Origin: Nitrospirales bacterium
GTDB taxonomy: Bacteria; Nitrospirota; Nitrospiria; Nitrospirales; UBA8639
Assembly: GCA_963555755.3 (NCBI GenBank)
Contig: OY820905.2
Coordinates: 2,880,001-2,944,000 of the forward strand
Reading direction: 5' to 3'
DNA: 64,000 bases
The notes beneath the pieces were generated by a model that did no database searches, had not been told where the DNA came from, and was given only the letters and a program-made list of their open reading frames with translations. The translations under genes were made by a program, and so were the position numbers. This document shows, piece after piece, positions 25,983 through 63,571 of this stretch (its first letter is position 1; the number at the start of each line of letters is the position of its first letter).

Positions 25983-26125
25983 AGGGCACCTCTAAAAACC
26001 AGGCATTTTTTGTGAGGGCAAGGAAGCCGCGCGCGGAAAACCGGAGTGTATGGGCGAATACATGAGGATTTGAGCACGCGGCTGACGCCGCCATCACGGA
26101 AAAGGACGGTTTTTAGAGGTGCCCT
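25983..26125. mobile_element. 143-bp MITE, inverted copy of 10675-10817
   Basis: TIR agggcacctctaaaaacc / ggtttttagaggtgccct. Confidence 0.9.
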
Positions 26126-31337: not shown

Positions 31338-31384
31338 AGGTTTTTATTTGACGTTTCTTATGAGAACAAATTTTAAATATCTAA

Positions 31385-31507
31385 TAAAATCTGCTCACAA
31401 TGATCATCCAGCAAGGCCGCAGGCGGCGAAAATTCCGAGGCGTACTAGTAAGTACGTTGAGGAATTTGAGCAACGAGAACGCAGCTGGGGATCATTGTGA
31501 GCAGATT

Positions 31508-31510
<3 letters not shown>
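31385..31510. mobile_element. 126-bp MITE overlapping the gyrB stop codon
   Basis: Perfect TIR taaaatctgctcacaatgatc / gatcattgtgagcagatttta. Confidence 0.85.
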
Positions 31511-35187
<3,677 letters not shown>

Positions 35188-35266
35188 AACAGAGCTCCCT
35201 TCTGATAACAGGCGGTTAAACTAAATAACCACCCGCTTTTTTTCTAAGTTCGTGCTGATACCCGGT

Positions 35267-35447
35267 AGGACCTGAGAGAAAATAACTTGGACTATATCGC
35301 GCCAAGATTTGGGTCGGAATTGGACGGAACGATTGAGAAACACCCGAGGCATAGCACAGCTATGTTGAGGGTTTTTCGATTGAGGCCCGTTCAAAGATGG
35401 CCCGAAGATTGGATGCGAGGGGTCCAAGATATTTTCTCTCAGGTCCT
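35267..35447. mobile_element. 181-bp MITE abutting the dnaA stop codon
   Basis: TIR aggacctgagagaaaataacttggac / gtccaagatattttctctcaggtcct (25/26 match). Confidence 0.85.
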
Positions 35448-36793
35448 TAAGCTTTACTGATCTCATCTTTTAGGCTTTCGAGTGTTGTCCGCAACGCGGT
35501 GTCGTTGTCGAGGGCTTTCTCAATTTGCCGACACGCGTGGATGATCGTTGTATGATCCTTTCCTCCAAACTCACGGCCTATTTCGGGAAATGATGATGCT
35601 GTAAGTTCACGGGAGAGAAACATGGCGATCTGTCTGGGATGTACGAGGGTTTTGGTGCGCCTCTTGGATTTTAAATCTGAAATTTTTACATTAAACCGAT
35701 TGGCCACCACTTCTTGTACATCCTCCAGGGTAATAAACTTTCTTTTATGGCCCAATAGATCTCGTAAAATAGTCTTGGCCATTTCGGTCGTGATAATTTT
35801 CCCAGTAAGGGTAGCATACGCCCCCAACCGAATTAGGGCTCCTTCTAACTCACGAATATTACTTTTGAGATTTTCAGCCACTAGTTGGATTACTTCGTCC
35901 CCAATGGCGATGCCTTCGTCTTCTGACTTCTTTCTGAGAATGGCGATGCGTGTTTCCAGATCTGGCGGTTGAAGGTCGGCAATGAGACCCCACTCAAATC
36001 GCGAACGAAGGCGTTCTTCCATAGAGGGCATTTCTTTGGGAAACCGATCACTCGATAGCACAATCTGTTTTCTGTCTTCATACAGCGTATTAAACGTGTG
36101 AAAGAATTCTTCTTGGGTTCGCTCCTTACCCGCTAAAAATTGGATATCGTCGATCAACAGCATATCGACATTTCGGTATCGCCGTCTCAGGTCAATCATT
36201 TTATCGTATCGAATGGAGTTAATGACTTCGTTTGTGAATTGTTCCGTGGTGACATAGGCAATACGGAGGTTAGTCTTCTCCATCACAAAATTACCTATTG
36301 AGTTGAGGAGATGCGTTTTCCCCAAGCCAACCCCACCATAAATGAAGAAAGGGTTATACGCCCTTGCCGGCGCTTCCGCGACCGCCAGACTCGCAGCATG
36401 GGCAAATTGATTACTGGCGCCCACAACAAAGCTGTCAAATGTATACTTTGGATTGGGAAGTTGCCGTCTGGGTGGCCTCCCTTGGACTGGAGGTTGAGAG
36501 ACTAAAGCTGGAGGTTGAATATCGCTGGGATTGTTCTCATCACCTACGACAAACAGGATTTTGACTTGTCCCTCCCCCTCTTTTCCTTGGGCGGAGTGAA
36601 TAGCTTCCCCAATCAGAGTCCGGTAGTTTCTTCCTAACCACTCTCCAAAAAACTTATTGGGAACAATAATGGTTGCATTTGATCCATTAATTTCACCCAA
36701 ACAAGTTTGGCGAAACCAGGTTTCGATAACATCCTTCCCCATCCGTGACTCAATAAAACCTAAGGCACGGTCCCAAATTTTAGACCCTTTCAC
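35447..36793 (-). CDS. dnaA: Chromosomal replication initiator
   Basis: YNPFFIYGGVGLGKTHL, IDDIQF, RSRFEWG, FGGKDHTTIIHA. Confidence 0.98.
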   Translation of the reverse strand: MKGSKIWDRALGFIESRMGKDVIETWFRQTCLGEINGSNATIIVPNKFFGEWLGRNYRTLIGEAIHSAQGKEGEGQVKILFVVGDENNPSDIQPPALVSQPPVQGRPPRRQLPNPKYTFDSFVVGASNQFAHAASLAVAEAPARAYNPFFIYGGVGLGKTHLLNSIGNFVMEKTNLRIAYVTTEQFTNEVINSIRYDKMIDLRRRYRNVDMLLIDDIQFLAGKERTQEEFFHTFNTLYEDRKQIVLSSDRFPKEMPSMEERLRSRFEWGLIADLQPPDLETRIAILRKKSEDEGIAIGDEVIQLVAENLKSNIRELEGALIRLGAYATLTGKIITTEMAKTILRDLLGHKRKFITLEDVQEVVANRFNVKISDLKSKRRTKTLVHPRQIAMFLSRELTASSFPEIGREFGGKDHTTIIHACRQIEKALDNDTALRTTLESLKDEISKA

Positions 36794-43730: not shown

Positions 43731-43919
43731 TCACAAACAGTGCCAGAGATTCTTCGGCGGACTGATCACCAAACTGGGCGTCTTATCGTCATGGAAGGGA
43801 CAGTGGCCAATGAGATCTTGGCCGTGGGGTTTCAACACGATGCTTTGGGCTTCGACGAGACGCTGAATGGAGATTTCTTGTTTTAACCGCTCGACTTCGT
43901 GATCAGGAATACGTGCCAT
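43731..43919 (-). pseudogene. Truncated primase (CHC2 zinc finger only), copy B
   Basis: Near-identical to the N-terminus of 48960-52112; ends at the Y1 element border. Confidence 0.88.
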
Positions 43920-44102
43920 GATGGACTCCTCAAAAGTGTGGATGTCGCAACCCTTGTCAACCCCTATATACACCAAATTTCCACTTTACTTATCCGCCAG
44001 AATTATACACACTATATGTATATGACGTCAAGCACTTTCCAGAGGGTTCCGCAATTGTGGGGGTATAATGCCGGGCATCGACACAAAGGAGGCCCGTCAC
44101 CG

Positions 44103-44468
44103 ATGCCCAAACAACAGATTGAATCGCTCACCGCGTTCGGCCACCGACTGATGACGTTGCGCAAAGCTGCGGGGTATACCCAAGTGGAGTTGGCTAAGGA
44201 ATTAGGTGTGAGTCAGCGGATGATCTCGTACTACGAGGGCCATTCCGAGTATCCACCGGCGGCAGCGTTGCCGAAGCTGGCTCGCCTGCTCGGCGTATCA
44301 GCTGATGAATTGTTGGGGATTCAGCGGTTGAAGAAGAACAAACAACCTGATACTCGCCTGCAGCGGCGGTGCCAGCAGATCGAGAAGCTGCCAGCCAAAG
44401 ACAAGCGGCAACTGCTGCAGCTCATTGATACCTTTGTGAAGGCGGCCCAACTCAAGGTCTCCGCGTAA
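44103..44468 (+). CDS. XRE-family HTH regulator (copy B)
   Basis: LRKAAGYTQVELAKELGVSQRMISYYE; aaggagg RBS before ATG 44103. Confidence 0.9.
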   Translation: MPKQQIESLTAFGHRLMTLRKAAGYTQVELAKELGVSQRMISYYEGHSEYPPAAALPKLARLLGVSADELLGIQRLKKNKQPDTRLQRRCQQIEKLPAKDKRQLLQLIDTFVKAAQLKVSA

Positions 44469-44520
44469 GGCGAGGGAGAAGGTCAGCTGCTAAACAGGGA
44501 GAGGTGAAAACTAGTTAGCT

Positions 44521-44775
44521 CTAACTCAAATTTTTGAGCCAAAAGGCAAACCCCATCAAAACTACAAGGCCAACCCAAAAGCTTGGATAACCTACTGGCC
44601 AAAAGTATACTTTCCCAGGATCTCCTGAAATTTTAAATCTGGGCTTATGATGACCAACGGTGAAGACCCATAACACAGCCTCACCCACCCATATGGCAAG
44701 TGGGGACATACAGGAAAATACAAAAGCTAAGGTATAGACAACAATATCCACCAAGATATTATCCATATCCTTCAT
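44521..44775 (-). CDS. Putative membrane immunity protein for the orphan Rhs-CT
   Basis: 84 aa, hydrophobic segments, AT-rich, directly downstream of the Rhs-CT. Confidence 0.6.
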   Translation of the reverse strand: MKDMDNILVDIVVYTLAFVFSCMSPLAIWVGEAVLWVFTVGHHKPRFKISGDPGKVYFWPVGYPSFWVGLVVLMGFAFWLKNLS

Positions 44776-44874: not shown

Positions 44875-46122
44875 CTACGAACAGCTCTGATCATTAGAGT
44901 TATCATTGTTCGAGTTGTCATCATTGGGGTTAAAGTTGTTTTCCTCACAAATCCCCCCACGACAACCTAATTCATCCCCCTGATCCAATTCAGGATTCTT
45001 GTCTCCCAAAATATCCTTAACAAATTTCCTTCCATCCTGACGCCCCGTATCAAAACTTTGGAGTAGGAAGTAGTCTGTACTTGGGGCTTCAAATCCATAA
45101 GATTGTTCAAGAAACCCAAAGGCGAAACCAAGTCCATATCCAGCAATGGGATTTGGGAACCACCTATCTCCTGAGGGATCAACGAAATTAGCAGGGTTAT
45201 TCAATGCAAACCGATAGAAATTTTGATCGCCTCCGGCAAACCCAATGGGATCTTCACTCAGAAACCGTCCGGTCTGTGGATCATAATAGCGGGCACGGTA
45301 GAAGTACAGCCCACTCTCCGCATCGAATTCTCGTCCGGTGTAGGTGAACGGTTGAAGAATGGTTTCTGAGAGCGTCAGCATGCGGCCGTAGGCATCGTAG
45401 AGATAGCTGTTGGCAATGAGACCGTTACTGTCGGTGAGATTGACGATCGAACCTTGATGATCGACATGATAGTAGAAGAACCCGACACCTGCGCGTTGGA
45501 CGGCTAAAGGTTGATCTGTTCCCGGACCGTGGCTATAGCGTGACACGAAGGTATTGGTCCCGTCGTACTCAAGGGCAATGTCTTCACCATCGTAGACGTA
45601 GCGCGTGCTACTGCCATTCACATTCTTTTCAATACGCCGTCCTACCCCATCGTATTTGTATGTCGTGGTCGTGCTATCAGGGAAGTCGATCTGGACCAAT
45701 TGATCTTGCGCATCCCACGTGTAGGTGATGACGCCAGTTGTCGTCTTGTCCGTTTTCGTTTCTAAATTCCCATTGGCATCATAGGCGTACGTGAACTGGT
45801 CGTCCTCCGTGAGGCGGTTGGCAGCATCGTGGCTGTGCGCTGTGGAGAGGAACGAGGTTGTCCGGTTCCCTGTGAGATCATAGTCGTAGGTTTCAGGCGT
45901 GCCCGTCGTGCCACCAGTCTTCAACCGTTGCAGAGCATCATAGGTATTCGTGCGGGTTTGGGCCGCAATGAGATTATCAATGATCGAGAGAATATTCCCG
46001 ACGGGATTGTAGGTGTAGCCGAAGTCCGTGAAGTTGGGATTGGCACCCAGGGTGTGAGTGAGCGCGTTGAGTCTTCCTTGGCTGTCATAGCCGTAATCCG
46101 AGATGACACCGTTGGGGAACAC
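44875..46122 (-). CDS. Orphan Rhs core + variable C-terminal domain; decayed 5' extension to ~46455
   Basis: Closely similar to the 3' core of 54539-62743 up to FVDPSG, then an unrelated CT. Confidence 0.88.
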   Translation of the reverse strand: MFPNGVISDYGYDSQGRLNALTHTLGANPNFTDFGYTYNPVGNILSIIDNLIAAQTRTNTYDALQRLKTGGTTGTPETYDYDLTGNRTTSFLSTAHSHDAANRLTEDDQFTYAYDANGNLETKTDKTTTGVITYTWDAQDQLVQIDFPDSTTTTYKYDGVGRRIEKNVNGSSTRYVYDGEDIALEYDGTNTFVSRYSHGPGTDQPLAVQRAGVGFFYYHVDHQGSIVNLTDSNGLIANSYLYDAYGRMLTLSETILQPFTYTGREFDAESGLYFYRARYYDPQTGRFLSEDPIGFAGGDQNFYRFALNNPANFVDPSGDRWFPNPIAGYGLGFAFGFLEQSYGFEAPSTDYFLLQSFDTGRQDGRKFVKDILGDKNPELDQGDELGCRGGICEENNFNPNDDNSNNDNSNDQSCS

Positions 46123-46619
46123 AGTGGAGAGCAGACGCCCGGTGAGATCATACCCCAGGGTAATCTCTTGGGACGCCGGGGTGGTGAGCTTGGTCAGGCG
46201 TCCCGCTAAATCATATTCATAGAGCGTCGTCCCGGGGGCGGTGTCGTCTAACTGTGTACGATTGCCGACCGCGATCCACCGTGCTGGTGGTCACGATTCG
46301 GTTGAGGCCATCATACGTACCATTCACTTCACTATCGTTGTCTGTCACGCTGGCTGGCTTCCCTACTGCGTCGTAGGCAATCGTGATCGTATTGTCTGGC
46401 GTGGTGATCGTAGTCAGACGAGACAAATCATCATAGGTTCTTGAGATGAGCTGGTTAAATTGAACCAACGACTCCTCATCGTAACGACAGGGATTTTCTT
46501 GAAGTGTTTTCACCATTTAGCAGCTAAGGAGGAGGATGGAATAGTGGTGCTGAAATGTTTTTGGCCCGGATGCGGGTTTGCGCTTAACATCTTCTCCCCC
46601 GCTCACGGCGCTCCCCTTT

Positions 46620-47141
46620 TTATCCTTTCTGCCGGATATATCCAATTTGTCGTTTGGACGATTTGGGCGGCGCTAAGAGCTTTTGAAGATAGTCATATAG
46701 CACCGCAATCTCTTTATCGTGTTTCTCTACTTTTCGAGCTAAGTCTTTATGAGTGGCCAGCATTTCCCGCATGCGCACAAACGTCCGCATAATGGCGATA
46801 TTTATCTCAGCGGCACGATCACTGTGCAAGACGCTTGAGAGCATGGCCACTCCTTCTTGGGTGAAGGCCCGTGGTGGAAAGCGAGGGTCTCTGTGCTTTT
46901 GGGAACCGGTCACAATTTGTGACTGGTTCATGGCCTTCGTTTCATCGCTGGAAAGACGGAACATAAAATCATCTGGGAATCGTTGCATATTACGTGTCAC
47001 CGCTTGATTGAGAGCTTTCGTCGGCACACCATAGAGTTCTGCCAGATCGTAGTCCAGCATCACCTTTTCGCCGCGAATCAGGTAGATGGCACTGGCAATC
47101 CGTTCAATGGGTATAATGGACTGGGGTGTCTTCTTCGCCAT
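46620..47141 (-). CDS. ORF6N-domain DNA-binding protein (copy A)
   Basis: MAKKTPQSIIPIERI...VMLDYDLAELYGV...FTQEGVAMLSSVL. Confidence 0.9.
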   Translation of the reverse strand: MAKKTPQSIIPIERIASAIYLIRGEKVMLDYDLAELYGVPTKALNQAVTRNMQRFPDDFMFRLSSDETKAMNQSQIVTGSQKHRDPRFPPRAFTQEGVAMLSSVLHSDRAAEINIAIMRTFVRMREMLATHKDLARKVEKHDKEIAVLYDYLQKLLAPPKSSKRQIGYIRQKG

Positions 47142-47396
47142 GAGCCGCTGTGTGGGGTTACCGTGATCGTGTTGTGCAAAGATTTCGTCTTGACGCGGGA
47201 TGGAGCTTAGCATCAATCGATCTATTGTGCGAGACCATTTCGTTTTATTGTTTAATCGCTCCGGGGCCGGCCGCCGAGGACGGAGCGGAAGACGCGAAGC
47301 GGCTGTAGCCGCCCGGAGGCGGACGTGTGGGTGGGTGGGGATGTGATGCTGTTTCTTCCTTCGTGCGCTGCGCACACCTTACCGCGTCTGCGCGGC

Positions 47397-51900: not shown

Positions 51901-52112
51901 ACACTCCCGCCCGCCTGACATGCCCCTAAACAGTGCCACAGATTCTTCGGTGGGCTGAGTACCAAACTGGGAGTCTTATCTTCATGGAAGGGACAACGGC
52001 CAATGAGATCTTGACCATGAGGTTTCAACACAATGCCTTGTGCATCGACAAGACGTTGAATGGAGATTTCTTGTTTTAACCGCTCAACTTCGTGCTCAGG
52101 AATACGGGCCAT
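48960..52112 (-). CDS. DnaG-like primase fused to a P-loop ATPase/helicase-like domain
   Basis: CPFH...HCLGAC zinc finger; Toprim CESLID, YDRD; P-loop SSAAGKS; ATG 52112 after gaggag. Confidence 0.88.
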   Translation of the reverse strand: MARIPEHEVERLKQEISIQRLVDAQGIVLKPHGQDLIGRCPFHEDKTPSLVLSPPKNLWHCLGACQAGGSVIDWVMKVEGISFRHAAELLQADYHPSLAANGSVKHSTVPKLPVALVSRTENVQVLKQVVEYYHQTLKESPEALAYLTHRGLTDPEMIDRFQLGFANRTLNYRLPAKTRKEGAALRGQLQRLGLMRPSGHEHFNGSVVIPILDAQGQVLELYGRKITERLRAGTPLHLYLPGPHQGVWNLEAVQATKEIILCESLIDALTFWCAGYRNVTASYGIEGFTSDHLAAFKAAGTERVLIAYDRDAAGDAAAEKLATKLLADGFDCYRIQFPKGMDANEYARQVQPAWKSLGTVIRAAQWMGKGQAKPVTTVAVPTANTTITEHPSPTSPSIPESSASLPMPDEVETTPSLLAAPSIAPVPATVIPPEPTPLVEAQTKSLGETEELVFTFGDRRYRIRGLEKNLSYDVLKVNVLVSQPAFHGVGDAVHVDTLDLYQSRPRHSFITQAAVELGVKDDVVKADLGKLVLQLEAMQEKRIQALQEPKTSTVTLSDDETTAALELLKSPDLLARIGQDFTRCGLVGEETNKLIVYLAALSRKLDAPLAVTIQSSSAAGKSALMDAVLAFLPEEERIKYSAMTGQSLFYMGQTELTHKVLAIVEEEGASQAAYALKLLQSEGELTIASTGKDPVTGKLETREYHVEGPVMIMLTTTAIDLDEELLNRCLVLSIDEGRTQTQAIHARQRDQRTLSGLIAKTDRQALRTLHQNAQRLLQPLAVVNPYAKHLTFVDDRTRTRRDHEKYLTLIDSLALLHQYQRPIQTMHHPVRRSLGEGGQEHVIRYVEVTLDDIATANALAHEVLGRTLDELPPQTRTLLRLIVEFVAERAKTLEMSRSDYRFSRREVRESTRWGNTQLKYHLHRLEELEYLVVHRGGRGQSFVYELLYDGDAQQDHPHLSGLIDVAALRTSYDYDEKKSGQIVNRSGSSRPQVGAKSGGGRDEEIATIVNSDKVFSISEAELTENALIREEEQPASYRTHTSVALAAKAD

Positions 52113-52295
52113 GATGGACTCCTCAAAAGTGTGGATGCCGCAACCCTTGTCAACCCCTATATACACCAAATTTCCACTTTACTTATCCGCCAGAATTATA
52201 TACACTATATGTATATGACGTCAAGCACTTTCCAGAGAGTTCCGAAATTGTGGGGGTATAATGCCGGGCATCGACACAAAGGAGGTCCGTCACCG

Positions 52296-52661
52296 ATGCC
52301 CAAACAACAGATTGAATCGCTCACCGCCTTCGGTCACCGGCTGATGACATTGCGCAAAGCCGCGGGATATACCCAAGTGGAGTTGGCTAAGGAACTAGGC
52401 GTGACTCAGCGGATGATCTCGTACTATGAAGGCCATTCCGAGTATCCGCCGCCGGCAGCGTTGCCGAAGCTGGCTCGCCTGCTCGGCGTATCAGCTGATG
52501 AATTGTTGGGGATTCAGCGGTTGAAGAAGAATAAACAGCCTGATACGCGGCTGCAGCGGCGGTGCCAACAGATTGAGAAGCTGCCGGCCAAAGACAAGCG
52601 GCAACTGCTGCAGTTGATTGATACCTTTGTGAAGGCGGCCCAACTCAAGATCTCCGCGTAA
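52296..52661 (+). CDS. XRE-family HTH regulator (copy A), divergent from primase
   Basis: Three substitutions relative to copy B; aaggagg RBS. Confidence 0.9.
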   Translation: MPKQQIESLTAFGHRLMTLRKAAGYTQVELAKELGVTQRMISYYEGHSEYPPPAALPKLARLLGVSADELLGIQRLKKNKQPDTRLQRRCQQIEKLPAKDKRQLLQLIDTFVKAAQLKISA

Positions 52662-52784: not shown

Positions 52785-53114
52785 TTAAATCGTAGCATCC
52801 CCTTTTCGTTTTTGTTGTCGATCAATGACCAAGAGTATTCTATTTTTGCCAGAATCAAAATCTAATTCCACATCTTTCAGAAGTACTGTGTAATTTTTCC
52901 CATCCCAAGGAGGGACAACATTTATTTGAAAAGCGGCCGGTATGGCCAATGGAACTTTCAGATCAAGAGTAATTGAGGTACGAGAGCAATTTCGTAATAT
53001 TCCAGTACCTTCCCATGGATGAGTTTGGGACTTGGGAATTATCGCATGATCTATTATCCGCAGTGAAACTTTTTTTCCTATCCATTTCTGGATTTCCTCA
53101 AACTTTTCATTCAT
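52785..53114 (-). CDS. Hypothetical protein (cassette-like, AT-rich)
   Basis: 109-aa ORF bracketed by repeats of the post-HTH junction sequence. Confidence 0.6.
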   Translation of the reverse strand: MNEKFEEIQKWIGKKVSLRIIDHAIIPKSQTHPWEGTGILRNCSRTSITLDLKVPLAIPAAFQINVVPPWDGKNYTVLLKDVELDFDSGKNRILLVIDRQQKRKGDATI

Positions 53115-53352
53115 TTTATTGGAACTCCGTTAGCGGATTTGTATCCAATACCGGGCATATAAGATAGTTTTTGCTTGATGTCCATTTATCGTGGACCAAG
53201 CCCACGAAGCAGGCTCAAAGTTTGTTATAAATTAAGGTGGCCAGCGTAAGGCTGGGAGACGCTCAGCCACTAAATTGAGCGAGGTGAGAACGAGCGCGAT
53301 GCGGGGAAGTAGGCCCGGAACCAATTTAACCAGGAGTCTCTGAGATGAGCTG

Positions 53353-53688
53353 CTATAGCCAAAATAAGGCTGTCATTAATATTAAAGCTAAGGCTTCGGT
53401 ATTATTAATAGCCCTTACCTTAAAAACATCCATAAGAAACAAATTCCAGAATTTCTTGAATAGCGTGGCCCCCCAATAAATCAACAGGAGCAAAATACTC
53501 AGAAATCCAATCACGTAGAATGCAAGAGTTCCTCCTTGGGGTCCTTCTCCTTGAAAAACCATTTTTACAATATCTGAGGACTCACTAAACCCACTAAATA
53601 TAGAAACTACAATGATATAAAGAACCAAGGTGAGATTGAAAGTTGTTGTTATATTGTTTTCCACACTCATTTGGGCCGGGAACTTCAC
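53353..53688 (-). CDS. Small membrane protein (possible immunity)
   Basis: 111 aa with about 3 hydrophobic helices; overlaps TPR gene stop. Confidence 0.55.
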   Translation of the reverse strand: MKFPAQMSVENNITTTFNLTLVLYIIVVSIFSGFSESSDIVKMVFQGEGPQGGTLAFYVIGFLSILLLLIYWGATLFKKFWNLFLMDVFKVRAINNTEALALILMTALFWL

Positions 53689-54440
53689 TTTTTGATTTTT
53701 CCATTGCCCTTCTGAACAAGTTGTTTGGTTTGTTTGAGAAGGGATTTAAGATACTGGCGGCCCCAGCCCCTGGCTCGAGGTAGGTTAGTTTCTAAAAGTC
53801 GAACGGCCCGTTTATTATAGCCTAAGGCATTGAACGCCTCAGCTAATGAAGAAATAGTGAGTTCAATTTCAAACTCACTAGGGGTTTTCTCATGTTTGAC
53901 CAACCGAAAGGCCTTCTCTAAATATGGCAAAGCATTTTGGGGTTCCTCCATTGCAAAAAGAGCATCCCCTAGAGAGCTATTTGCCATTCGATCTTTGGGA
54001 TTGAGTTTTAGTGCCTTTTTAAAACAATCTAAGGCCTCTCGGTCCTTATCCAAAGCGAATAACACATTCCCTTTTAGGCATAAGGCTCGAACTTTCACCC
54101 ATCGATCACGCCCAGCGTATAACAAGGCCTTTTCCACGTCCCGAAGCGCTACGTTGTAATCTTGTTTGATGGCATACCACACTCTGCCTCGTTCTAAAAG
54201 GGCCTCGCTGCATCGTGGATTCACCGCGATGGCTTGTTCATAACACTGCATGGCCTCTCGAACACGGTCGCGAGCAAAGAGAATCCGCCCTTTGATGATA
54301 AGGGCCTCTGTATTGTCTGGTTCGAGCCGTAAGGCTCGATTAATCTTTTGGAGCGCTCTGCCAAGTTTCCCTTCACATGCGTAGAGATGATCTGCATCAT
54401 CAATCAGAAGAGCCACGTCATGTTTGACTTTCTCACTCAT
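53685..54440 (-). CDS. TPR protein, putative cognate immunity
   Basis: Repeated TPR motifs (ALRLEPDNTEAL, AIAVNPRCSEAL, ALKLNPKD); first gene after the giant Rhs. Confidence 0.75.
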   Translation of the reverse strand: MSEKVKHDVALLIDDADHLYACEGKLGRALQKINRALRLEPDNTEALIIKGRILFARDRVREAMQCYEQAIAVNPRCSEALLERGRVWYAIKQDYNVALRDVEKALLYAGRDRWVKVRALCLKGNVLFALDKDREALDCFKKALKLNPKDRMANSSLGDALFAMEEPQNALPYLEKAFRLVKHEKTPSEFEIELTISSLAEAFNALGYNKRAVRLLETNLPRARGWGRQYLKSLLKQTKQLVQKGNGKIKK

Positions 54441-54538: not shown

Positions 54539-57500
54539 CTAATTTTTGCATTGGTTATCTGAATCCTTTTTCTTTTTCCCCTTTTTCTTCTGGTTATCCG
54601 TATCACTATTATGTGCTTTTTTGGATTTACCTCTTTGGAGTTCATCTAGCCTGCTTTTTGCCTTAGATTTCTGTTTTTGTGTGGCATTAGGATCTTTACG
54701 CAAATTTTTTAATTCCTGTATGGCTTTTTGTCTAGCTGCCTCATTTCCAAAAGCAGGGTCATCTCCCCCAAGCGTTGAAGATTGCAGGGCTTCGTTTAAA
54801 ACGAAAGTAGCTGCTGTAGCTACTGTGCCTACAATCGCGGTCGTAATAGCTAGGGCCGTACTGGTTGAGATAGTTACTGCAGTCCCACCTGCAAAAATAG
54901 GGAAGAGCGCGATAATGACAATTTCCCCATCAGGATCAACAAAATTTACTGGATCATTGAACACATAGCGATAAAGATTTTGATCGCCAGCAGCAAACCC
55001 AATCTGATCTTCACTCAAAAATCGTCCACTTAGAGGATCATAGTACCGGGTACGGTAAAAATAGAGCCCACTTTCTTGATCGAACTCCCGTCCGGTATAG
55101 GCGAACGGTTGCGGAATCGTTTCAGACAGTGTGAGCATGCGGCCATAGCTGTCATACAAGTACGAATTCGCCACCAGCCCGCTGCTATCGGTCAGGTTGA
55201 CGATCGACCCTCCATGATCTTCGTGGTAGTAGAAGAAGCCAACTCCCGCGTGTTGGACCACTAAGGGCTGATCAGTTCGGTCGCCGTGGCTGTAGCGCGA
55301 CACGAAGGTGTTGGTGCCGTCGTATTCGAGGGCGATGTCTTCGCCATCGTAGACGTAGCGTGTGATGGTCCCATTGACGTTCTTTTCAATCCTTCGTCCC
55401 AATCCATCATATTTGTAACTCGCCGTTGTGCTATCGGGAAAATCGATTTGGATCAATTGGTCCTGGGCATCCCAGGTGTAGGTGGTGACGTCAGTTGTAG
55501 TCTTGTCCGTTTTCGTCACAAGGTTTCCATTGGCATCATAAGTGTACGTGAAATCATCATCTTCCATGAGGCGGTTGGCATCATCATGCGTATGGGTGGC
55601 TGACAAAAACGACGTCGTGCGATTGCCGGTGAGATCGTAGTCGTAGGTTTCAGGGGTGCCTGTCGTTCCCCCGGTTTTCAAACGCTGGAGGGCGTCGTAG
55701 GCATAGGTTCGCGTCTGAGCGGCATTCAGGTTGTCGATGATCGACTGAATATTGCCAACTGGATTGTAGGTGTAGCCGAAATCCGTGAAGCTGGGGTTGG
55801 TGCCCAGCGTATGAGTGAGGGTGTCTAATCGGCCTTGAGCATCATAGCCGTAGTCCGACACCACACCATTCGGGAAGAGTATCGTATCCAATCGGCCAGC
55901 GGGATCATAGGCCAAACTAATAGCAGTCGCTGGTTGATTGAATGGCGTAATCAGACTGGTCAGTCGCCCGGCCAGGTCATAGCCGTATGACGTGACACTC
56001 GAAAGAATATCCGTCAGACTGCTGCGATTCCCGACCGCATTATAGGCACTCGTTAAGGTTGCCGCCGGTTGGGCACCTAAATCTGTCGTCCCTTCCGTTA
56101 GCACGCGATTCAACCCATCATAGGAGAACGTCACGAGGCTATCTGTATCTCCAATGGTCAGCGGATTACTCGCGGCATCATAGGTCACCGTAATCGTATT
56201 ATCCGGTGTGGTAATGGTGGTGAGTCTGGAGCGGTCATCATAGGTTCGGGAGATGAGCTGACTCTTGGGATCGGTGGTAGTTTCGAGATTGTTGCGGGTG
56301 TCGTAGGTAAAGAGAGTTTCTTGGGTGAGCGGATTGATCCGCTTGGTTTGGCGATTCAAGAGGTCGTATTCAAAGGTTGTGATTTTGTTGCGTGCATCCG
56401 TGAACGTCTCGACATTGCGAGAGACATCATACGTAAACGTCTGTTCGCCTGTGAGGGCGTCCGTGATCTTCGTGAGTTGATTTGCGGCATCGTATTCAAA
56501 TGTCGTCGGATCAGTGAGGGCATTGATGGAGGAGAGAAGATTCCCATTCCCGTCATAGCTGAACTGTGTGAGCCCACGAATGGGATCATTGATCGTGGCG
56601 ACTCGTTCTCGGGTGTCATACGTCCGTTGTTCAACTTCGCTGGTGGGCAGTTCGGTCTCTTCGAGATTGCCTTGGACGTCATAGCGGAACAGGGTCGGGG
56701 GATTCGCGGTGCCATCCGTGGCACTGGTGAGGCGGTTTAGCGCGTCATAGGTGAAGATGCGGGTGCGCACTTCTGGTGTGCTGACTCCTTCGGTGATGGT
56801 CAGCACATTCCCTACTGTATCGCGCGTGAATTGGGTCACGTTCCCTTCCGGATCAGTGATCGTGTCCACATTGCCATTGGCGTCATAGGTCAACGTGGTG
56901 GTTTTGCCATTTTCATCTGTGTCCGTCAAGACCAACCCGCGACTATCAAACGTGCGCGTGCGTTCGCCTAGAAGGGGATTAATCACTTTCTCCGGATTGC
57001 CATTGACATCTCGTTGAATGGTGGTTTCCTTGCCGACTGGATCAATGATTTTGGTGAGGAGCTGATAGGTCGGGCCATATTCAAACGTGGTCGTGCGTTC
57101 TTCTGGTTGCCCTTCGGCTTCGACGAAGTTGAGCACATTGCCTTGATTATCATAAGTCCGCCTGGTGAGAGCTCCATTTGGTGCGGTCGTGATGACAGCG
57201 CGGCCATCGTTATTGCGCGCAATGCGCGTCTCGCGGCCTAACGGATCGAGGCGGACCGTACCCTGGCCATAGGCATCCAGCTTAAACGTGCTGCTTTGGC
57301 CATTGCCATTGGTGAAGATGGATTGGACATCACTTGGGCGGACAACCGGGGCCGGGTTGGTGTCCGTGCCGAGCCCACTAGCTGGGTCAATGAGGCCCAC
57401 CACTTCGGCCGACTGTAACGCCATGGTGGACCCATCGGACCGCGTGACGGTCGCAATACGGCCGGCAAAGTTGTACGCATACTGTGTCGTAAACCCACGT

Positions 57501-60500
57501 TTGGAGGTCTTTTGCGTCATGCGATGGCGGGCATCGTAGGTGAACTGCCGTGTACTACTATCCGGATCGGTAATGGTGGTGAGATTGCCGTCGGCGTCAT
57601 GATTCATGGTCGTCACCCGCCCGGTGGGATCAGTGATCATCTCGAGTTTGGTATCCGGGCCGTAGGTCAAGGTGGTGACGAGGCCTACGGGGTCAGTGAT
57701 GGTAGAGACTCGCTCACTGGTTCCTTCGTAGGTGTAGGTCGTGGTGTTGCCATTGCGATCCACCACTGTTGTCTGCCGGCCTTGGGCATCATAGTGGACT
57801 TCCTTGCCGGTTTTGAACCGACGCGTCAAGGTGCTGTCCGGGTTTTCGGTGAGGGTGGAGAAATCTCCTGCCGGACTACGGAGTTGGCCTTCCTCAAATA
57901 TTGGGCTATTGAGCAACCGGCTTGCTTGATTCCCGGGCGCACCTCCCACCATGGCGACGTCGATGGTGCCGCTCAGGTCAAAGTCCGCCAGCGCCAAGCG
58001 CGGCCCAGCAAAGAGAGTAGACGTGATCCCGGCCGAGAATGTGGTGGGTGGGCCAAATCCCCCCGTGCCCTTGCCCAATAGGACAGAGAGGGTATTCGTG
58101 GCGCCGATGGGTTCTTCGTTGATAATCAACAGATCCAACAGCCCATCCAGATTGACGTCGGCGGTCACAATATCTTCTGTCTGCAAATTGACATTGGTTT
58201 CAAGAAGCAGAGTGGTCGGGGGAAAGAAGCCGCCAATGGTGTTGTTGATGAGCACCAAGGCCTGGCGGTCCCCCAAGAGTCCCGCAGTGGTTACGAGGTC
58301 GAGGTAGCCATCCTGATTGAAGTCGCCGGCGGTCAACCGCAACGAGAGCTTGAGGCCATCGAGGAGAACTTTGTTGGCAAAAGTGCCAGTGCCATCGCCC
58401 AGGAGTAAAAAGGCTTTGGTATTGGCCGTCACTGCCAAGTCTAGCAAACCATCGTTATTAAAGTCCTTGGCGATCAGGTCAGATGGGCCTCCCTCACTTA
58501 AACTGATGGAGAAAAGCGGCGGGTTCGGAAAATTCCCTGTGCCATCCCCAAGAAACACCGTCACTTCTTTGGATAAATTATTCGCGGTGGCAAAGTCGAG
58601 GAAGGTATCCCCATTAAAGTCGCCGATGGTGACCCCCCGCGGTCCCGAAAAGTTTCCCGTACTGAAGGGAACATTCAGCACCAGGCGGTTGACATCGTCA
58701 AAACCCCCGACCCCATCCCCCAGCACAATGGAGGCCTTATCAAAGACGTTGGCCACCGCCACCATATCCAGGAGCCCATCTCCGTTAAAGTCCCCTAGCT
58801 CGACATCTGAAGTCCTCACCCCCAAGATTAGGTCCTGCGGCCCAGGCGTAAAGGCCCCGGTCCCGTCGCCGAGGTGAATATCCATCCCGCCAAAGGGATC
58901 CAGAATCGCGACGTCTGGGAACGTGTCGTTATTAAAATCAGCCACCGCCAGATTCTGAGGCCAGGTCCCTGGTGGAATGGCACGGGGCGTGTCAAACCCG
59001 CCGGGCTTTGGTGGTTGGAAGAGCATGGTCCCGCCGTTCCCCTTTGTGAGGACAACATCGCCATCTGATTGGACAACCAAGCGAGAAAGGCCTTTCAACG
59101 ACCACCCTGCTCCAAAGGAGCTGGCTTGGTCGTTGCGTATCAACAGCGTGTCCCGAACCACACTGGAGACAGAGCTCCGAGCAAGATGATTCGTCAGAGT
59201 GAGCGCATAAGGATAACTGCCGGTGACAAAGGAACTGGCATCGAATTGCACGGTTTGTCGAAGGGATTCATTGACGAGTTCACGCAAGGTGCTGGTGTCC
59301 GTAAAGATTTCAGCCCCTTGCTCCACACCCGCTACTTGCAGCCGAGCGGACATCTGGTTGGGGACGGCCGTAATCGAAGGAATGGTCGGGTAGTTGAACA
59401 CAATCGGTTGCGGATCCGCACCCACACTCCGGTAGATGAGCCGACGGGTGCGATCGACCCCTAACGATTGGTAAGAGACAAGCGAGTGCGCTACCACTAA
59501 ATTCCCTGAACAGACTTCGAGACTAGAGGCACCATTACAATCATCAGAATCATTCTCATCCCCATCGTCGTCGCCATCCCCGTCGTCCCCATCGCCAGCT
59601 CCATCCCCATCTCCTCCTGATTGGTTGGAATTGTTACCTGGGTTTGGATCGTCTGGGTCGTTGGGATCATTGGGGTCACCACCTTTGGGAGGGCCACCTC
59701 CAGATCCAGGATCTGTGGCAGGTGGGGAAGCCATATGCCAATCCGCAGCGCGTACGCCGCCGCTGATGGTATTGATTTCCGTTCCATCCGCAATGACTTC
59801 GCCGGTTCCCACCACCACAAATTGGCCGGAGGCCGGTTCTAACGACCAAATGTCTACTTCATTACCTGGGGCGAGGTTGTCGATATTCGGAAACGTGATG
59901 GCCACGGGCGGGTCAAAGATCACACCCACCGGTTGGATGGTAATCAACAGCCCGGGTTGGAGTTCGTCCGGCAAGGCCGCCGGTGCTAGGGCATCCGGCA
60001 CTTCGGAAATGGTAAGTGCCCCGGTGAAATCCGTCCCATCTGAATTCTTCGCCGTGTGTGGGGGCACGATGATGCTCACACCAATACTTGGGTTGTCGAC
60101 CTTGGTTGTGTTGTTGGGATCGATTCCTGACACAGGTGTCCCATTCACGAGCATTTGGCTGGCAGGGTCAAGTTGGGGGAGAAAAAATGGGCGGTTCACG
60201 ACATTGGTGACATCCGCGATCAACTCGAATCGTTCGCGGAACCCCGCATAGGCAGGGGACACTGGCTCTGCCGTGGAGGGATCAATGTCAAAGACCTGTA
60301 TACCAGCTTCGGGTAAGTTGGTGAGCGTGAAATATCCTTGCTGGTCAGTAGTCGTGGTCACCCCACTCCCCAGAATGGTCACCGTCGCCATAAACACTGG
60401 GGTTTCCGTGCCGGTTGCTACGAAATCATTGGTATCCAAAATACGACCAGTCATTTCAGTGACGCCACCTGGCTGGGGGCCGTTAACCGTGATGGTGATG

Positions 60501-62743
60501 GTTTCGGCATCCGTCAGCACTCCATCGCTCATTATTATGGTGAGAATATGATCGCCGACTTGTGTGGCATCCGGCGTGAAGGTCAGCACGCCACTGACGC
60601 CATTGAGCGTCATATTGGCTGGCAACGGCAGCGGGGTGGCGGTGAAGGAAATTGGATCGCCGTTGGGGTCTGATCCGCTGAGGGTGAATGTGAGCGATTG
60701 CCCAAGTTGGACGGTCTGATTCCCAACGGGATTGAGTGCCGGGGGGTCATTCACCGCGGTGATCGTGACTGTATCGGGACCACTATTCACGATGCCATCG
60801 TTGACAATGAGGTGCAGGACATAGGCGCCTTCAAGATCTGCAACAAAGATAGGCTTGACGACCGCTGGATTCGATAAAGACGCAGTACTCCCTATCGGCT
60901 GGCTCAGAAAACTCCATTGAAAGCCTAACGCATCGCCATTGAGATCGGATGAGCCACTGCCATCCAGGTGCACCGTGGCATTCGGGGAGACGGCCTGATC
61001 TGGACCAGCATCGGCTACAGGGGGAGTATTCTCAGCGGTGATGATCACCGAATCCGGGGCGCTGTCATCCGTTCCATCGTTGACCACAAGTTCCACGGTA
61101 TAGTTGCCAATGACATCCGGCACGAACGTCGGACCCACACTTGTTGGGTTGGTGAGCGTGGCGGCACTGCCAGCTGGCTGGCTAGTGAAAGTCCACTGGA
61201 AGGTGAGCGGATCGCTATCAGGATCACTCGATCCACTTCCATCCATGGTGACAAGGGTGTTCACCTGCACCGTTTGATTGGCACCGGCCTCTGCTATTGG
61301 TGCTTTATTTGCGGTGACCACCACAGAGGTTGGAAGACTATCTTCGGTCCCATCATTGACAATAAGTTGAACGACATACATGCCGGTTACATCAGCGACA
61401 AACGTGGGAGAAGTGGCTGCTGGATCTGACACCGTGGCGGTACTGTCTGGTGGACGCGTGGTGAAGGACCATTGAAAGGTGAGCGGGTCTCCATCCACAT
61501 CACTGGATAGCGAGCCATCCAGCTGCGCCGTCGCCCCGGTCAAGACCGATTGATCTTCACCGGCATCGGCTACCGGCCGTGAATTTTGTGTATTGATCAC
61601 GACCGTATCTGGCACACTGTCGACGGTTCCGTCGTTCACAATCAGTTGCACAACATACGTTCCAGACACATCCACCGTGAAGTCAGGTGTCGGGGAGGCA
61701 GGATCGGAAAGGGACACCGTGCTGCCCGTTGGGACCGAGGCAAAGGACCATTGAAACGTGAGTGGATCCCCATCCACATCACTGGATGCCGTGCCATCCA
61801 GGAGAACCGGTTGCGTCACAAATACCGTTTGACCCGGACCAGCATCGGCTATCGGCTCGGAATTGACCGTCGTAATCGTCACGAGTTCGACGTCGCTGTC
61901 TGCCGTACCATCATTGACGGTCAGAAGAACCACATACGTTCCTAGCTGATCGACCACAAATGTCGGATTGACCAATGTTGGATCGGACAAGGTTGCCGTG
62001 CTGCCCGCAGGCGTTGCCCCAAACGACCAGCTGAAAGTCAGCGCATCGCCATCCACATCGCTTGAGGCGCTCCCGTCAAGTTGGACGGTGTCCGTGACTT
62101 GGGCGGATTGATCAGGCCCAGCGTCCGCGACAGGTGGGGAGTTGGCGGTGGTAATCGTGACAATGTCCGGGGCACTATCCACGGTGCCATCATTGACGAT
62201 GAGTTGCACCACATAAGTTCCGACAACATCCACGATAAAGGTAGGAGCCACTGAGGTAGGATCGGAGAGGACCGCCACACTGCCATTAGGCAACGAGGTC
62301 AAGGTCCATTGAAAGGATAAGGGATCTCCATCGTCATCCGTAGAACCACTTCCATCAAGATGGGTGGTTTCCCCAACCGGAACGGTTTGATCCGGGCCTG
62401 CTTCTGCAATGGGCGCCACATTGTCGCCAGTCGGAAAGCCGGTTTCTCCCAAATGATCGACCACAAACTGCAAATCGGTGTGATCGACATCTCCATCTCC
62501 ATCTGTGTCTGCCAGATTGAATTCACAATTGGGTTTATTGTGGGGATTGTTGCCCAAGCAACGAGCCACAATTGAGACATCTTTGCCGGTTACAGTGCCA
62601 TCATTGTTGAGATCAGGATCGGGTGCTTGAGCCCATGGAACCGTGAGGAGCCCCGCTAGCAACATCAGGGTCACCATGGTCAAAACGCCAGCCGGTCCCG
62701 TGAGTAGGCTCTTAAAGAATCCCGTAGTTTGAAGCCGCAGCAT
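54539..62743 (-). CDS. Giant secreted Rhs/YD-repeat protein: signal peptide, dockerin/EF-like, 6 PKD-like, Ig, FG-GAP propeller, YD shell, variable CT
   Basis: P.A.AG..Q repeats x6; (G/A)DFN.DG..D repeats x7; YD repeats; YYDP..GRFLSED, FVDPDG. Confidence 0.92.
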   Translation of the reverse strand: MLRLQTTGFFKSLLTGPAGVLTMVTLMLLAGLLTVPWAQAPDPDLNNDGTVTGKDVSIVARCLGNNPHNKPNCEFNLADTDGDGDVDHTDLQFVVDHLGETGFPTGDNVAPIAEAGPDQTVPVGETTHLDGSGSTDDDGDPLSFQWTLTSLPNGSVAVLSDPTSVAPTFIVDVVGTYVVQLIVNDGTVDSAPDIVTITTANSPPVADAGPDQSAQVTDTVQLDGSASSDVDGDALTFSWSFGATPAGSTATLSDPTLVNPTFVVDQLGTYVVLLTVNDGTADSDVELVTITTVNSEPIADAGPGQTVFVTQPVLLDGTASSDVDGDPLTFQWSFASVPTGSTVSLSDPASPTPDFTVDVSGTYVVQLIVNDGTVDSVPDTVVINTQNSRPVADAGEDQSVLTGATAQLDGSLSSDVDGDPLTFQWSFTTRPPDSTATVSDPAATSPTFVADVTGMYVVQLIVNDGTEDSLPTSVVVTANKAPIAEAGANQTVQVNTLVTMDGSGSSDPDSDPLTFQWTFTSQPAGSAATLTNPTSVGPTFVPDVIGNYTVELVVNDGTDDSAPDSVIITAENTPPVADAGPDQAVSPNATVHLDGSGSSDLNGDALGFQWSFLSQPIGSTASLSNPAVVKPIFVADLEGAYVLHLIVNDGIVNSGPDTVTITAVNDPPALNPVGNQTVQLGQSLTFTLSGSDPNGDPISFTATPLPLPANMTLNGVSGVLTFTPDATQVGDHILTIIMSDGVLTDAETITITVNGPQPGGVTEMTGRILDTNDFVATGTETPVFMATVTILGSGVTTTTDQQGYFTLTNLPEAGIQVFDIDPSTAEPVSPAYAGFRERFELIADVTNVVNRPFFLPQLDPASQMLVNGTPVSGIDPNNTTKVDNPSIGVSIIVPPHTAKNSDGTDFTGALTISEVPDALAPAALPDELQPGLLITIQPVGVIFDPPVAITFPNIDNLAPGNEVDIWSLEPASGQFVVVGTGEVIADGTEINTISGGVRAADWHMASPPATDPGSGGGPPKGGDPNDPNDPDDPNPGNNSNQSGGDGDGAGDGDDGDGDDDGDENDSDDCNGASSLEVCSGNLVVAHSLVSYQSLGVDRTRRLIYRSVGADPQPIVFNYPTIPSITAVPNQMSARLQVAGVEQGAEIFTDTSTLRELVNESLRQTVQFDASSFVTGSYPYALTLTNHLARSSVSSVVRDTLLIRNDQASSFGAGWSLKGLSRLVVQSDGDVVLTKGNGGTMLFQPPKPGGFDTPRAIPPGTWPQNLAVADFNNDTFPDVAILDPFGGMDIHLGDGTGAFTPGPQDLILGVRTSDVELGDFNGDGLLDMVAVANVFDKASIVLGDGVGGFDDVNRLVLNVPFSTGNFSGPRGVTIGDFNGDTFLDFATANNLSKEVTVFLGDGTGNFPNPPLFSISLSEGGPSDLIAKDFNNDGLLDLAVTANTKAFLLLGDGTGTFANKVLLDGLKLSLRLTAGDFNQDGYLDLVTTAGLLGDRQALVLINNTIGGFFPPTTLLLETNVNLQTEDIVTADVNLDGLLDLLIINEEPIGATNTLSVLLGKGTGGFGPPTTFSAGITSTLFAGPRLALADFDLSGTIDVAMVGGAPGNQASRLLNSPIFEEGQLRSPAGDFSTLTENPDSTLTRRFKTGKEVHYDAQGRQTTVVDRNGNTTTYTYEGTSERVSTITDPVGLVTTLTYGPDTKLEMITDPTGRVTTMNHDADGNLTTITDPDSSTRQFTYDARHRMTQKTSKRGFTTQYAYNFAGRIATVTRSDGSTMALQSAEVVGLIDPASGLGTDTNPAPVVRPSDVQSIFTNGNGQSSTFKLDAYGQGTVRLDPLGRETRIARNNDGRAVITTAPNGALTRRTYDNQGNVLNFVEAEGQPEERTTTFEYGPTYQLLTKIIDPVGKETTIQRDVNGNPEKVINPLLGERTRTFDSRGLVLTDTDENGKTTTLTYDANGNVDTITDPEGNVTQFTRDTVGNVLTITEGVSTPEVRTRIFTYDALNRLTSATDGTANPPTLFRYDVQGNLEETELPTSEVEQRTYDTRERVATINDPIRGLTQFSYDGNGNLLSSINALTDPTTFEYDAANQLTKITDALTGEQTFTYDVSRNVETFTDARNKITTFEYDLLNRQTKRINPLTQETLFTYDTRNNLETTTDPKSQLISRTYDDRSRLTTITTPDNTITVTYDAASNPLTIGDTDSLVTFSYDGLNRVLTEGTTDLGAQPAATLTSAYNAVGNRSSLTDILSSVTSYGYDLAGRLTSLITPFNQPATAISLAYDPAGRLDTILFPNGVVSDYGYDAQGRLDTLTHTLGTNPSFTDFGYTYNPVGNIQSIIDNLNAAQTRTYAYDALQRLKTGGTTGTPETYDYDLTGNRTTSFLSATHTHDDANRLMEDDDFTYTYDANGNLVTKTDKTTTDVTTYTWDAQDQLIQIDFPDSTTASYKYDGLGRRIEKNVNGTITRYVYDGEDIALEYDGTNTFVSRYSHGDRTDQPLVVQHAGVGFFYYHEDHGGSIVNLTDSSGLVANSYLYDSYGRMLTLSETIPQPFAYTGREFDQESGLYFYRTRYYDPLSGRFLSEDQIGFAAGDQNLYRYVFNDPVNFVDPDGEIVIIALFPIFAGGTAVTISTSTALAITTAIVGTVATAATFVLNEALQSSTLGGDDPAFGNEAARQKAIQELKNLRKDPNATQKQKSKAKSRLDELQRGKSKKAHNSDTDNQKKKGKKKKDSDNQCKN

Positions 62744-63243
62744 TGGAGATCTCCTCTATATTAGATACATATGTACAGATTTTAATATATTTAATTTTTA
62801 CATACAAATAACCCTATAATATTTATGCCAACTAATTGAGTAGGACCATATCAATCTATATGACACAAAATTTCCTTACATTTTAATACGTTATAAGTTG
62901 ACCGTAGTAAATGGATGAAGGGAAAAAGTTGAACTTACCGAGACAATTGTTACTGAATGGTTACACCGTGCATCCAAAAAGTAACAGTTTTGAAAAAGAG
63001 TCGATTTCTTGTTTCCAATAATGTGTGGGAAAAGAAGTAATAAATCGGAAAGGGTGAGGTGCCACGGAATTGACTGACACCTGAAAAATGGGACAGGATT
63101 CCAGAAGAATGTTTACTCCTGTGATCGGCACAGGCCGTGACAACGGGGAGAAAGAAGACTACAAATCGCTTGCTCCGGTAATATTTTCCAAAGGGACCGA
63201 TCTTTCAGGTTCTTGCCCGCCCGACTTAGACAACGTGGCCTAA

Positions 63244-63400
63244 GGGCTCGCGCAAGAATAATTTCCCATTTTGGGGTGACGAGACACCTGTCTGGCAAGG
63301 TGCGAGGACTGCGCATACTCTTGGTATGTAAGGGACGAGCAACGCCGCCAGACAGGATGGATCGACGCTCAAAGATGGGAAGTTATTCTTGCGCGAGCCC
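63244..63400. mobile_element. 157-bp MITE
   Basis: TIR gggctcgcgcaagaataatttcccat / atgggaagttattcttgcgcgagccc, flanked by taa on both sides. Confidence 0.82.
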
Positions 63401-63571
63401 TAAGGATTGAATCAACACCCTCGAAAGACTTTGGCCTTTCAGTCTCCAGCGGGTAAACCTCGAGAAAGTGTTGCAACGAGTGGTTGATCTCAAGATTCGT
63501 TATTTGACACTTTGGAGATAAGGAATCTACAATTAATCCCTTAGTGTTTTTCAATCAAGAGGGGTACTACT

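Follow-up and report, generated by a model that had tools for sequence, protein, structure and literature searches.

A predicted teneurin-like protein frame in a Nitrospirales bacterium with an apparently exchangeable module at the NHL position

Introduction

The superfold of bacterial teneurin-like proteins (TLPs) has been called invariant, and the TLP search demanded hidden Markov model (HMM) matches to the FN-plug, the NHL propeller and the YD shell (PMC13018210, 2026; papers given by PMC number are cited throughout for the part of their content that was available). Is the NHL propeller a fixed part of this design? The question is raised by a 64,000-nucleotide stretch of DNA from a Nitrospirales bacterium (contig OY820905.2, positions 2,880,001 to 2,944,000; the window), where an intact gene at 54539-62743 on the minus strand encodes a giant teneurin-like YD protein of 2734 amino acids (aa). 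A preliminary description, made from the sequence alone, had proposed that this is a Sec-exported teneurin-like toxin or adhesin, independent of type VI secretion (the T6SS), in which an integrin-type FG-GAP propeller replaces NHL. Judged from sequence comparison, the NHL position is an exchangeable slot and not a fixed part, and FG-GAP in place of NHL is one state of a hypervariable slot. We consider it likely that the protein is an exported and probably antibacterial polymorphic toxin with a teneurin-like frame (a transthyretin-like domain (TTR), ZU5/TIP, FN-plug and YD shell) and a slot that probably chooses the binding target.

Predicted fold of the giant protein

The open reading frame (ORF) is uninterrupted over 2734 codons and has a GAGGAG ribosome site upstream. 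It was found with 0 differences in single 10,650-nt contigs from runs of two studies, one of which is possibly the source. RNA evidence came from one library, in pieces of 150-260 nt only, and is no evidence of transcription.

AlphaFold2 modelling of aa 1060-2259 from 37 sequences (model 1; the Rhs core lies outside the folded stretch) gave a mean predicted local distance difference test score (pLDDT) of 87 and a predicted template modelling score of 0.74. The best Foldseek match was the Bacillus TLP 9ifo (E 1.8e-45, 1380 columns), which ranked before teneurins, T6SS Rhs proteins and Tc entries. A second model, from TTR to plug (aa 760-1244, pLDDT 86), was matched by Foldseek first of all to five teneurin entries (7bam, E 1.6e-6). 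For the plug alone the rows for 6vhh, 9g2f and 9ifo had a probability of 1.00 and a root mean square deviation (rmsd) of 4.4-5.6 over 171-176 columns, and VIA aligned 171 residues with 6vhh at Z 8.0 and rmsd 4.3. The giant protein is thereby predicted to fold like the bacterial teneurin relatives, and the FN-plug/YD-shell superfold named in the preliminary description is borne out by the models.

Within this frame the TTR domain (CarboxypepD_reg; aa 760-858, 60170-60466) was described earlier as carboxypeptidase-regulatory-like. Its Pfam match at aa 775-813 is below the cut-off, and the modelled fold agrees with transthyretin-like 5aq0 (Z 12.0, rmsd 1.7, 81 aligned). The earlier domain list was correct but incomplete, as it overlooked a 150-aa ZU5-fold domain (aa 859-1008, 59720-60169) between TTR and linker, at the TIP position of TLPs. 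This domain scores 22.3 bits in Pfam against a cut-off of 21, and its model resembles the ankyrin ZU5 domain 3ud2 (Z 10.1, rmsd 3.0, 127 aligned). In the models TTR and ZU5/TIP stand upstream of the plug as they do in TLPs; TIP has had no solved structure for comparison, and the ZU5 assignment gives it a predicted fold. A Pro/Asp/Gly linker, predicted to be disordered (aa 1009-1067, 59543-59719, pLDDT below 50), leads to the FN-plug (aa 1068-1244, 59012-59542) with its GAGW motif (GAGWSL at aa 1211). Of the two Cys said to end the linker, C1069 does so, whereas C1078 sits at the start of the plug.

The slot (aa 1245-1619, 57887-59011) is occupied by seven FG-GAP repeats, as first described, with an FG-GAP_3 match in Pfam (E 1e-32) and Asp motifs at aa 1269, 1318, 1375, 1427, 1474, 1529 and 1587, the last one degenerate. 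In model 1 (model residues 186-560) it is a seven-bladed propeller that matches aldos-2-ulose dehydratase at Z 33.0 and integrin alpha chains at Z of about 31-32 (rmsd about 3, about 338 aligned; for 3v4v Z 31.9, rmsd 3.1, 338 aligned). The model therefore supports an integrin-type propeller at the NHL position. The YD shell and Rhs core follow (aa 1620-2606, 54926-57886), with 13 RHS stretches and the NCBIfam core model TIGR03696 at aa 2530-2606.

The canonical NHL-type TLP P0153 (2728 aa, with a PKD stalk) served for comparison. Pfam teneurin models for TTR, plug and NHL match P0153 and not the window protein: FN-plug_TEN1-4 found nothing in the plug region, and NHL and TEN_NHL found nothing in the giant protein, whereas P0153 gives TEN_NHL at E 2e-47. 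A single-sequence search of the PDB with aa 760-1260 returned nothing significant. By hhalign the TTR, TIP and plug domains each had their counterpart in P0153 as the best of ten comparisons (E 0.0066, 0.0056 and 0.015). Because this similarity is in the twilight zone, we regard the proteins as a distant sister family of TLPs. The protein would work like a TLP yet has no NHL match, so it is not a TLP by the published definition; its family, in which the slot is exchangeable, stands as a sister to the TLPs.

Comparison with known systems

Most of the architecture is shared with the Bacillus protein BiTLP (9ifo/9pt5; PMC13018210): Ig stalk, TTR, TIP, FN-plug, inserted module, YD shell, Rhs core, a variable tip of about 15 kDa and a downstream gene of likely immunity function, together with the catalytic spacing, a Cys/Ser site before the plug and a predicted N-terminal signal. 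Unlike BiTLP, the window protein has FG-GAP instead of NHL in a slot that varies across its family, a shorter TIP ending in RAADWH where BiTLP has THFS, and a weak DUF6531 match in the plug flank. Metazoan teneurins (6fb3, 7bam, 8fia) also have TTR, FN-plug, a propeller at this position and a YD shell, but they carry NHL, EGF repeats and an external Tox-GHH tip and do not autocleave. The T6SS Rhs effectors RhsA (7q97) and RhsP (8h8a) share YD shell, Rhs core and tip-immunity pairs, whereas the window protein lacks a PAAR/VgrG region.

FG-GAP propellers in YD shell proteins are not new. For Rhs toxins, integrin-like propellers accompanied by SpvB were already listed, as was ZU5, which in some of them lies close to the N-terminus (PMC3482391), and TcB-type proteins carry an integrin-like propeller in the YD shell (PMC3482391, PMC6425310). 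On this likeness to TcB-TcC and TcdB-TcaC-type proteins, the window protein could be a Tc BC-like component whose propeller binds to a distinct partner for translocation and whose cargo is meant for eukaryotes. Those proteins, however, contain SpvB and a larger shell but lack an FN-plug, and the docking partner of Tc BC is TcA, whereas the seven blades here stand at the NHL position after an FN-plug. No SpvB match was found at E 0.01 in the whole protein or at E 5 in aa 760-1244, Tc entries come after TLP, teneurins and Rhs in the Foldseek ranking, and no partner gene was found nearby. (The TcA family PF18276 gave no match, but its control was silent as well, so that this counts for nothing.) The propeller is moreover replaceable by unrelated folds and the immunity-like gene described below implies bacterial targets, which leaves a Tc-like role very improbable.

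What appears to be new is the exchangeable slot at the NHL position; the TLP frame (PMC13018210) and the presence of FG-GAP and ZU5 in Rhs toxins (PMC3482391) were known. The terms FG-GAP, ZU5 and Nitrospir- do not occur in the text and 10 of the 11 supplements of PMC13018210, several pages of which are images, and in the literature searched, which covered few subscription papers, no description of a variable NHL slot was found.

Diversity of the slot among relatives

A search with aa 760-1260 gave 212 proteins among 7992 scored candidates, and the best 120 of the 212 were used. HMMs of the flanks defined the slot in 119 of 121 proteins, the query included; P0023 and P0043 were dropped as they lacked the right anchor. 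The segment between plug and shell fell into 15 sequence clusters, with six further cases in which it was empty (3-12 residues). Filled slots hold unrelated folds of 160-1770 aa. Classes were named by Pfam scans of 1-3 members per cluster with the match inside the slot: FG-GAP (38 proteins, one with a doubled module of 709 aa), TSP_C (19), LamG (14), Kelch (5), laminin-B (4), PA14 (4), NHL/Vgb-like (3), VWA (3), legume lectin (1), a weak PPC match (1) and an insert of 1770 aa (3). Four classes without a name have 6, 5, 5 and 2 members, and for one of them a likeness to NHL propellers is no more than a lead (0.84). By Pfam most classes are known ligand-binding folds of lectin or adhesion type. 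The three proteins with the 1770-aa insert (P0013, P0024 and P0042), most of which is unannotated, have a HINT domain in the tip.

The slot labels were placed on quick trees (FastTree and LG+G4) built from the TTR-to-plug frame. They require 46 (FastTree) or 45 (IQ-TREE) changes, compared to a minimum of 15 and a mean of about 75.5 for shuffled labels, and the branches with strong support by themselves still demand 5 changes in FG-GAP, 6 in TSP_C and 9 in LamG. The tree of the shell after the slot gave 48 changes. Since the trees are unrooted, gain and loss of a slot are indistinguishable. Replacement is also seen between close frames: P0029 (LamG) and P0052 (TSP_C) are 83% identical before the slot and 84% after it, and P0008 (LamG) and P0010 (NHL-like) are 74% and 66% identical, respectively. 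The nearest neighbour had the same class in 26 of 27 proteins when identity exceeded 80%, in 11 of 24 when it was 65-80%, and in 34 of 68 when it was lower. In one contig (L001) an orphan ORF, beginning at the left anchor and carrying an FG-GAP slot, lies behind a gene with a LamG slot; after the slot the two are 71% identical. The first 25 or so residues of the orphan (L001:16162-19017) resemble those with which a response-regulator receiver domain begins, and it ends at a transposase-like gene.

Repeated replacement between close frames together with an orphan spare slot looks like selection for new specificities, and 15 module classes of mostly lectin or adhesion folds at the NHL position point to a targeting determinant. 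NHL determines the binding specificity of teneurins (PMC6425310). How TLPs find their targets is an open question in PMC13018210. A parallel exists in CdiA, where central receptor-binding domains and tips are swapped independently (PMC5371414). CdiA likewise combines a stalk and an exchangeable central binding region with a tip that can be exchanged, an immunity gene and orphan cassettes, but its scaffold and export are unrelated and it swaps homologous regions, whereas the slot takes unrelated folds of 160-1770 aa.

The same data bear on an alternative that keeps the toxin design and takes the slot for a general adhesin, with which the protein would attach to particles, matrix or kin cells without any choice of victim. 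This would agree with the empty slots in six of the 119 proteins, with the many glycan-binding folds and with similar modules elsewhere in the proteins, either in other shell loops (Kelch at shell position +265 in P0008, LamG at +225 in P0050, LamG late in the shell in L032, L034 and L035) or at the N-terminus. One-site replacement between close frames, the spare slot and the role of the homologous NHL in teneurins argue for specificity, and we regard a general adhesin as unlikely, although it deserves to be kept in mind. The orphan cassettes at L032, L034 and L035 (genomes G391, G347 and G240) carry LamG too.

Variation was also noted outside the slot. At 60163-60422, which codes for TTR, the contig of a close relative from three marine metagenome runs has 261 other letters with both flanks fitting; by sequence the TTR domain may be exchanged as well. 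The frame is present in 13 of 401 genomes of the phylum, its own included, and the source names of homologues comprise Omnitrophota, Chloroflexota, Poribacteria, Acidobacteria, Desulfobacterota, Pseudomonadota and others. The clade of the window protein in the frame tree also includes P0071 (source name Nitrospirales), which by itself would make the host a probable relative of that order. A degenerate-pattern scan of GTDB contigs gave two loci only.

Predicted protease site, plug cut and tether

The YD shell of the preliminary description stands, but its DPxG protease motif does not describe the whole site, which is bipartite with DQIG as its first motif. The catalytic residues R2566, D2579 and D2603 have spacings of 13 and 24, the same as R2103, D2116 and D2140 of BiTLP, and the R-12-D-24-D pattern is present in 71 of the 76 members with a readable core. 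Among 80 aligned members, 76 retain the plug Ser (S1073), the predicted cut, and 76 have a Cys at most 12 residues before it. DDCN precedes the predicted cut here and the cut site in BiTLP (C719/S724), which is cleaved before S724 with C719 disulfide-bonded to the tip (PMC13018210).

By this resemblance the shell would cleave itself after the DPDG motif and before S1073. The freed 128-aa tip would remain inside the shell, probably tethered by a disulfide between C2732 and C1069 as in the Bacillus TLP. Cys makes up 2.2% of tips versus 0.15% of shells and occurs in 75 of 76 tips. An orphan tip elsewhere in the window (44875-45168), which has no family match, also ends in Cys (a C-terminal CS, with an internal CxxxxC), and fits a general disulfide tether.

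HFS is a self-cleavage site of ZU5 domains. Self-cleavage of the ZU5 domain is unlikely here, since neither HFS nor the CxH motif (PMC3482391) is present and the family has ADWH. The TIP of canonical TLPs ends in HFS or HFT (BiTLP aa 684-686; P0153 around aa 1150), and the available text of PMC13018210 makes no mention of ZU5. From these sequences HFS/HFT may be a further, third cut site of canonical TLPs, one missing in the family of the window protein.

The tip and its candidate immunity gene

The 128-aa tip (54539-54925) consists of two hydrophobic segments followed by a basic domain with a conserved GGDDP...R..E..SK..H pattern and one Cys (C2732). A total of 21 representatives match this tip family. 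Most stand immediately behind an Rhs core, and GGDDP, R, E, SK and H are conserved; P0159 among the matches looks like an unrelated helical repeat. The family occurs on unrelated Rhs proteins, including P0153, so that tips move between the two sister families. Across the 76 members with a readable core end, tips have a median of 131 aa and form 62 clusters. Ntox28 and Ntox16 were rejected as an identity for the tip, as they are sub-threshold leads and Pfam is empty. As a guess from the basic helical make-up and these leads, the tip could be an RNase.

Downstream of the giant gene lies a gene for a TPR protein (53685-54440, minus strand). Six close homologues were found and three of their loci were fetched: in one (L043) a whole tip of the same family stands directly upstream of the TPR homologue, in another (L044) a remnant of the tip is left, and the third (L045) is a 30% match. 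As the TPR gene follows the tip family in two further contigs, it is likely the cognate immunity gene. The TPR protein starts without a signal, from which we infer that the target of the tip is cytoplasmic. Two small ORFs beyond it (111 aa, hydrophobic, and 109 aa; 52785-53688, minus strand) are possible accessory immunity genes. In marine-sediment contigs the stalk was covered at about 95% identity and little of the tip/TPR bin was covered; this lack of cover counts as no finding.

The tip could also belong to a non-toxic adhesin or kin-recognition tag, as a peptide signal, in the way that teneurins became receptors. It matches no known toxin family, and of nine TLP tips no more than three were inhibitory to E. 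coli (PMC13018210). Such a tag would not lead one to expect a protease site that is intact, 62 clusters among the tips of 76 proteins, a tip common to unrelated Rhs proteins, a dedicated downstream TPR gene in three places and orphan tip-immunity arrays, and we find this explanation improbable. The locus adds an unannotated tip family with its candidate TPR immunity protein.

Stalk and predicted export

At the N-terminus a predicted signal peptide or membrane anchor (aa 1-40, 62624-62743) was recognized by hydropathy; inspection showed a hydrophobic core at aa 17-35 (mean 2.0) followed by AxA with Pro at +1. A hydrophobic N-terminus is found in 92 of 121 family members. The dockerin/EF-like pair, six PKD repeats and Ig repeat of the preliminary description all have Pfam matches: Dockerin type I/EF-hand at aa 44-98 (62450-62614), a stalk of six PKD domains at aa 108-663 (60755-62422, E 9e-62) and a He_PIG/Big_9 Ig domain at aa 665-754 (60482-60751; Pfam He_PIG at 667-754). 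The dockerin is the only one of the genome. Anchoring through cohesin was rejected after a genome search for it.

Independence of T6SS agrees with the lack of any VipB or VgrG match in the 99.4% complete genome, for which the control in E. coli was positive, and with the lack of a PAAR match in the giant protein by Pfam. A cluster with secretin, GspE-like and pilin-like genes is located at C1:3.657-3.669 Mb; all its matches are under the curated cut-offs, so that its assignment to type II secretion was dropped.

Proposed mode of action

We propose that the N-terminal signal would direct passage through Sec, and that dockerin and the PKD/Ig stalk would keep the head away from the cell. As to an outer-membrane step, the genome has the unassigned type II-secretion-like cluster. 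The FG-GAP propeller would bind a glycan or protein on the surface of a neighbour. The hydrophobic part of the tip could then enter the membrane and the basic helical domain act in the cytoplasm, most likely on RNA, while kin would be protected by the cytoplasmic TPR protein neutralising the tip. Slots are likely renewed by recombination between conserved flanks, and tips by recombination with orphan shell-tip-immunity cassettes carried with the XRE/primase/XerC element described below.

Several observations weigh against this reading of a teneurin-like toxin with a target-choosing slot. The match of the whole model to 9ifo is loose (rmsd 15 Å, template modelling score 0.50), similarity in sequence to the domains of canonical TLPs is weak (hhalign E about 0.006-0.015), and the family HMMs found no TTR, TIP or plug match in P0153, where the plug HMM also spanned the shell. 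The slot label is clustered on the tree, so swaps would be episodic and slower than tip changes, the six empty slots mean that the slot is not essential to the design, and the orphan slot is a single locus. The tip has no family match in Pfam, and its Atlas leads to Ntox28/Ntox16 of 0.80-0.82 are under 0.9. Cleavage of the signal is doubtful because Pro follows the AxA site, and no cohesin partner for the dockerin was found in the genome. Ligand, toxicity, cleavage and localisation are all predictions from sequence and models.

The slot modules are small domains whose ligands could be assayed alone. More tentatively, and in a form that may well prove wrong, the superfold could be a two-part chassis of FN-plug and YD shell with a port for receptor-binding modules. 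A widespread and mostly uncultured bacterial family would then reload both ends independently, its target choice from spare slot cassettes and its payload from spare tip cassettes, and animal teneurins would stem from the single lineage in which NHL became fixed in the port; the teneurin NHL would then be one captured cassette.

Neighbouring genes and other loci

Downstream of the giant gene, beyond the two small ORFs, lies an element with an XRE-family repressor (52092-52661, plus strand), a CHC2/Toprim primase-like protein with an XerC-type tyrosine recombinase (PRK01287; 47872-52169, minus strand), both recognized by Pfam and NCBIfam, and an ORF6N-domain gene (46620-47375, minus strand; Pfam). 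It is followed by an orphan shell 3' end with a different 97-aa tip (44875-46456, minus strand, including a broken upstream piece at 46262-46456), which has 79% aa identity to aa 2236-2607 of the giant protein. An 84-aa membrane protein (44521-44775, minus strand) is by position the likely immunity gene of the orphan tip. A second copy (93% nt identity) of the XRE gene and the 5' end of the primase gene is found at 43735-44514, and beyond this stub lie transposases, a second ORF6N and further Rhs scraps.

Such a repeat unit is the remnant to be expected if a circle of core, tip, immunity gene and element had integrated into the conserved core. Orphan tip arrays also lie downstream of family members in L030, L032, L033 and L035, and the XerC-type recombinase was found in one of 40 relatives. 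No joints of element excision or tip exchange were seen in two runs spanning the full ORF, and the literature searched gave no description of an XRE/primase/XerC element.

The toxin island (37978-64000) is located between hisS and rnpA, near dnaA-dnaN-gyrB-gyrA (28842-36793) and thus near the likely replication origin. Other Rhs loci of the same genome lack the TTR-TIP-plug frame (contig C1: 234700-238700, L041; 688800-706400, L039-L040; 1413900-1419200, L042 of genome G000). Among the three, FG-GAP repeats occur in one, another consists of three arrayed shell ends whose C-termini are nearly identical, and another adjoins XRE, primase and ORF6N scraps like the element of the window. Upstream of the giant gene, an imperfect palindrome at 63239-63405 drew very deep and varied contigs in all runs checked; this is probably a small element that is repeated, like those at 18035-18200 and 25983-26125.

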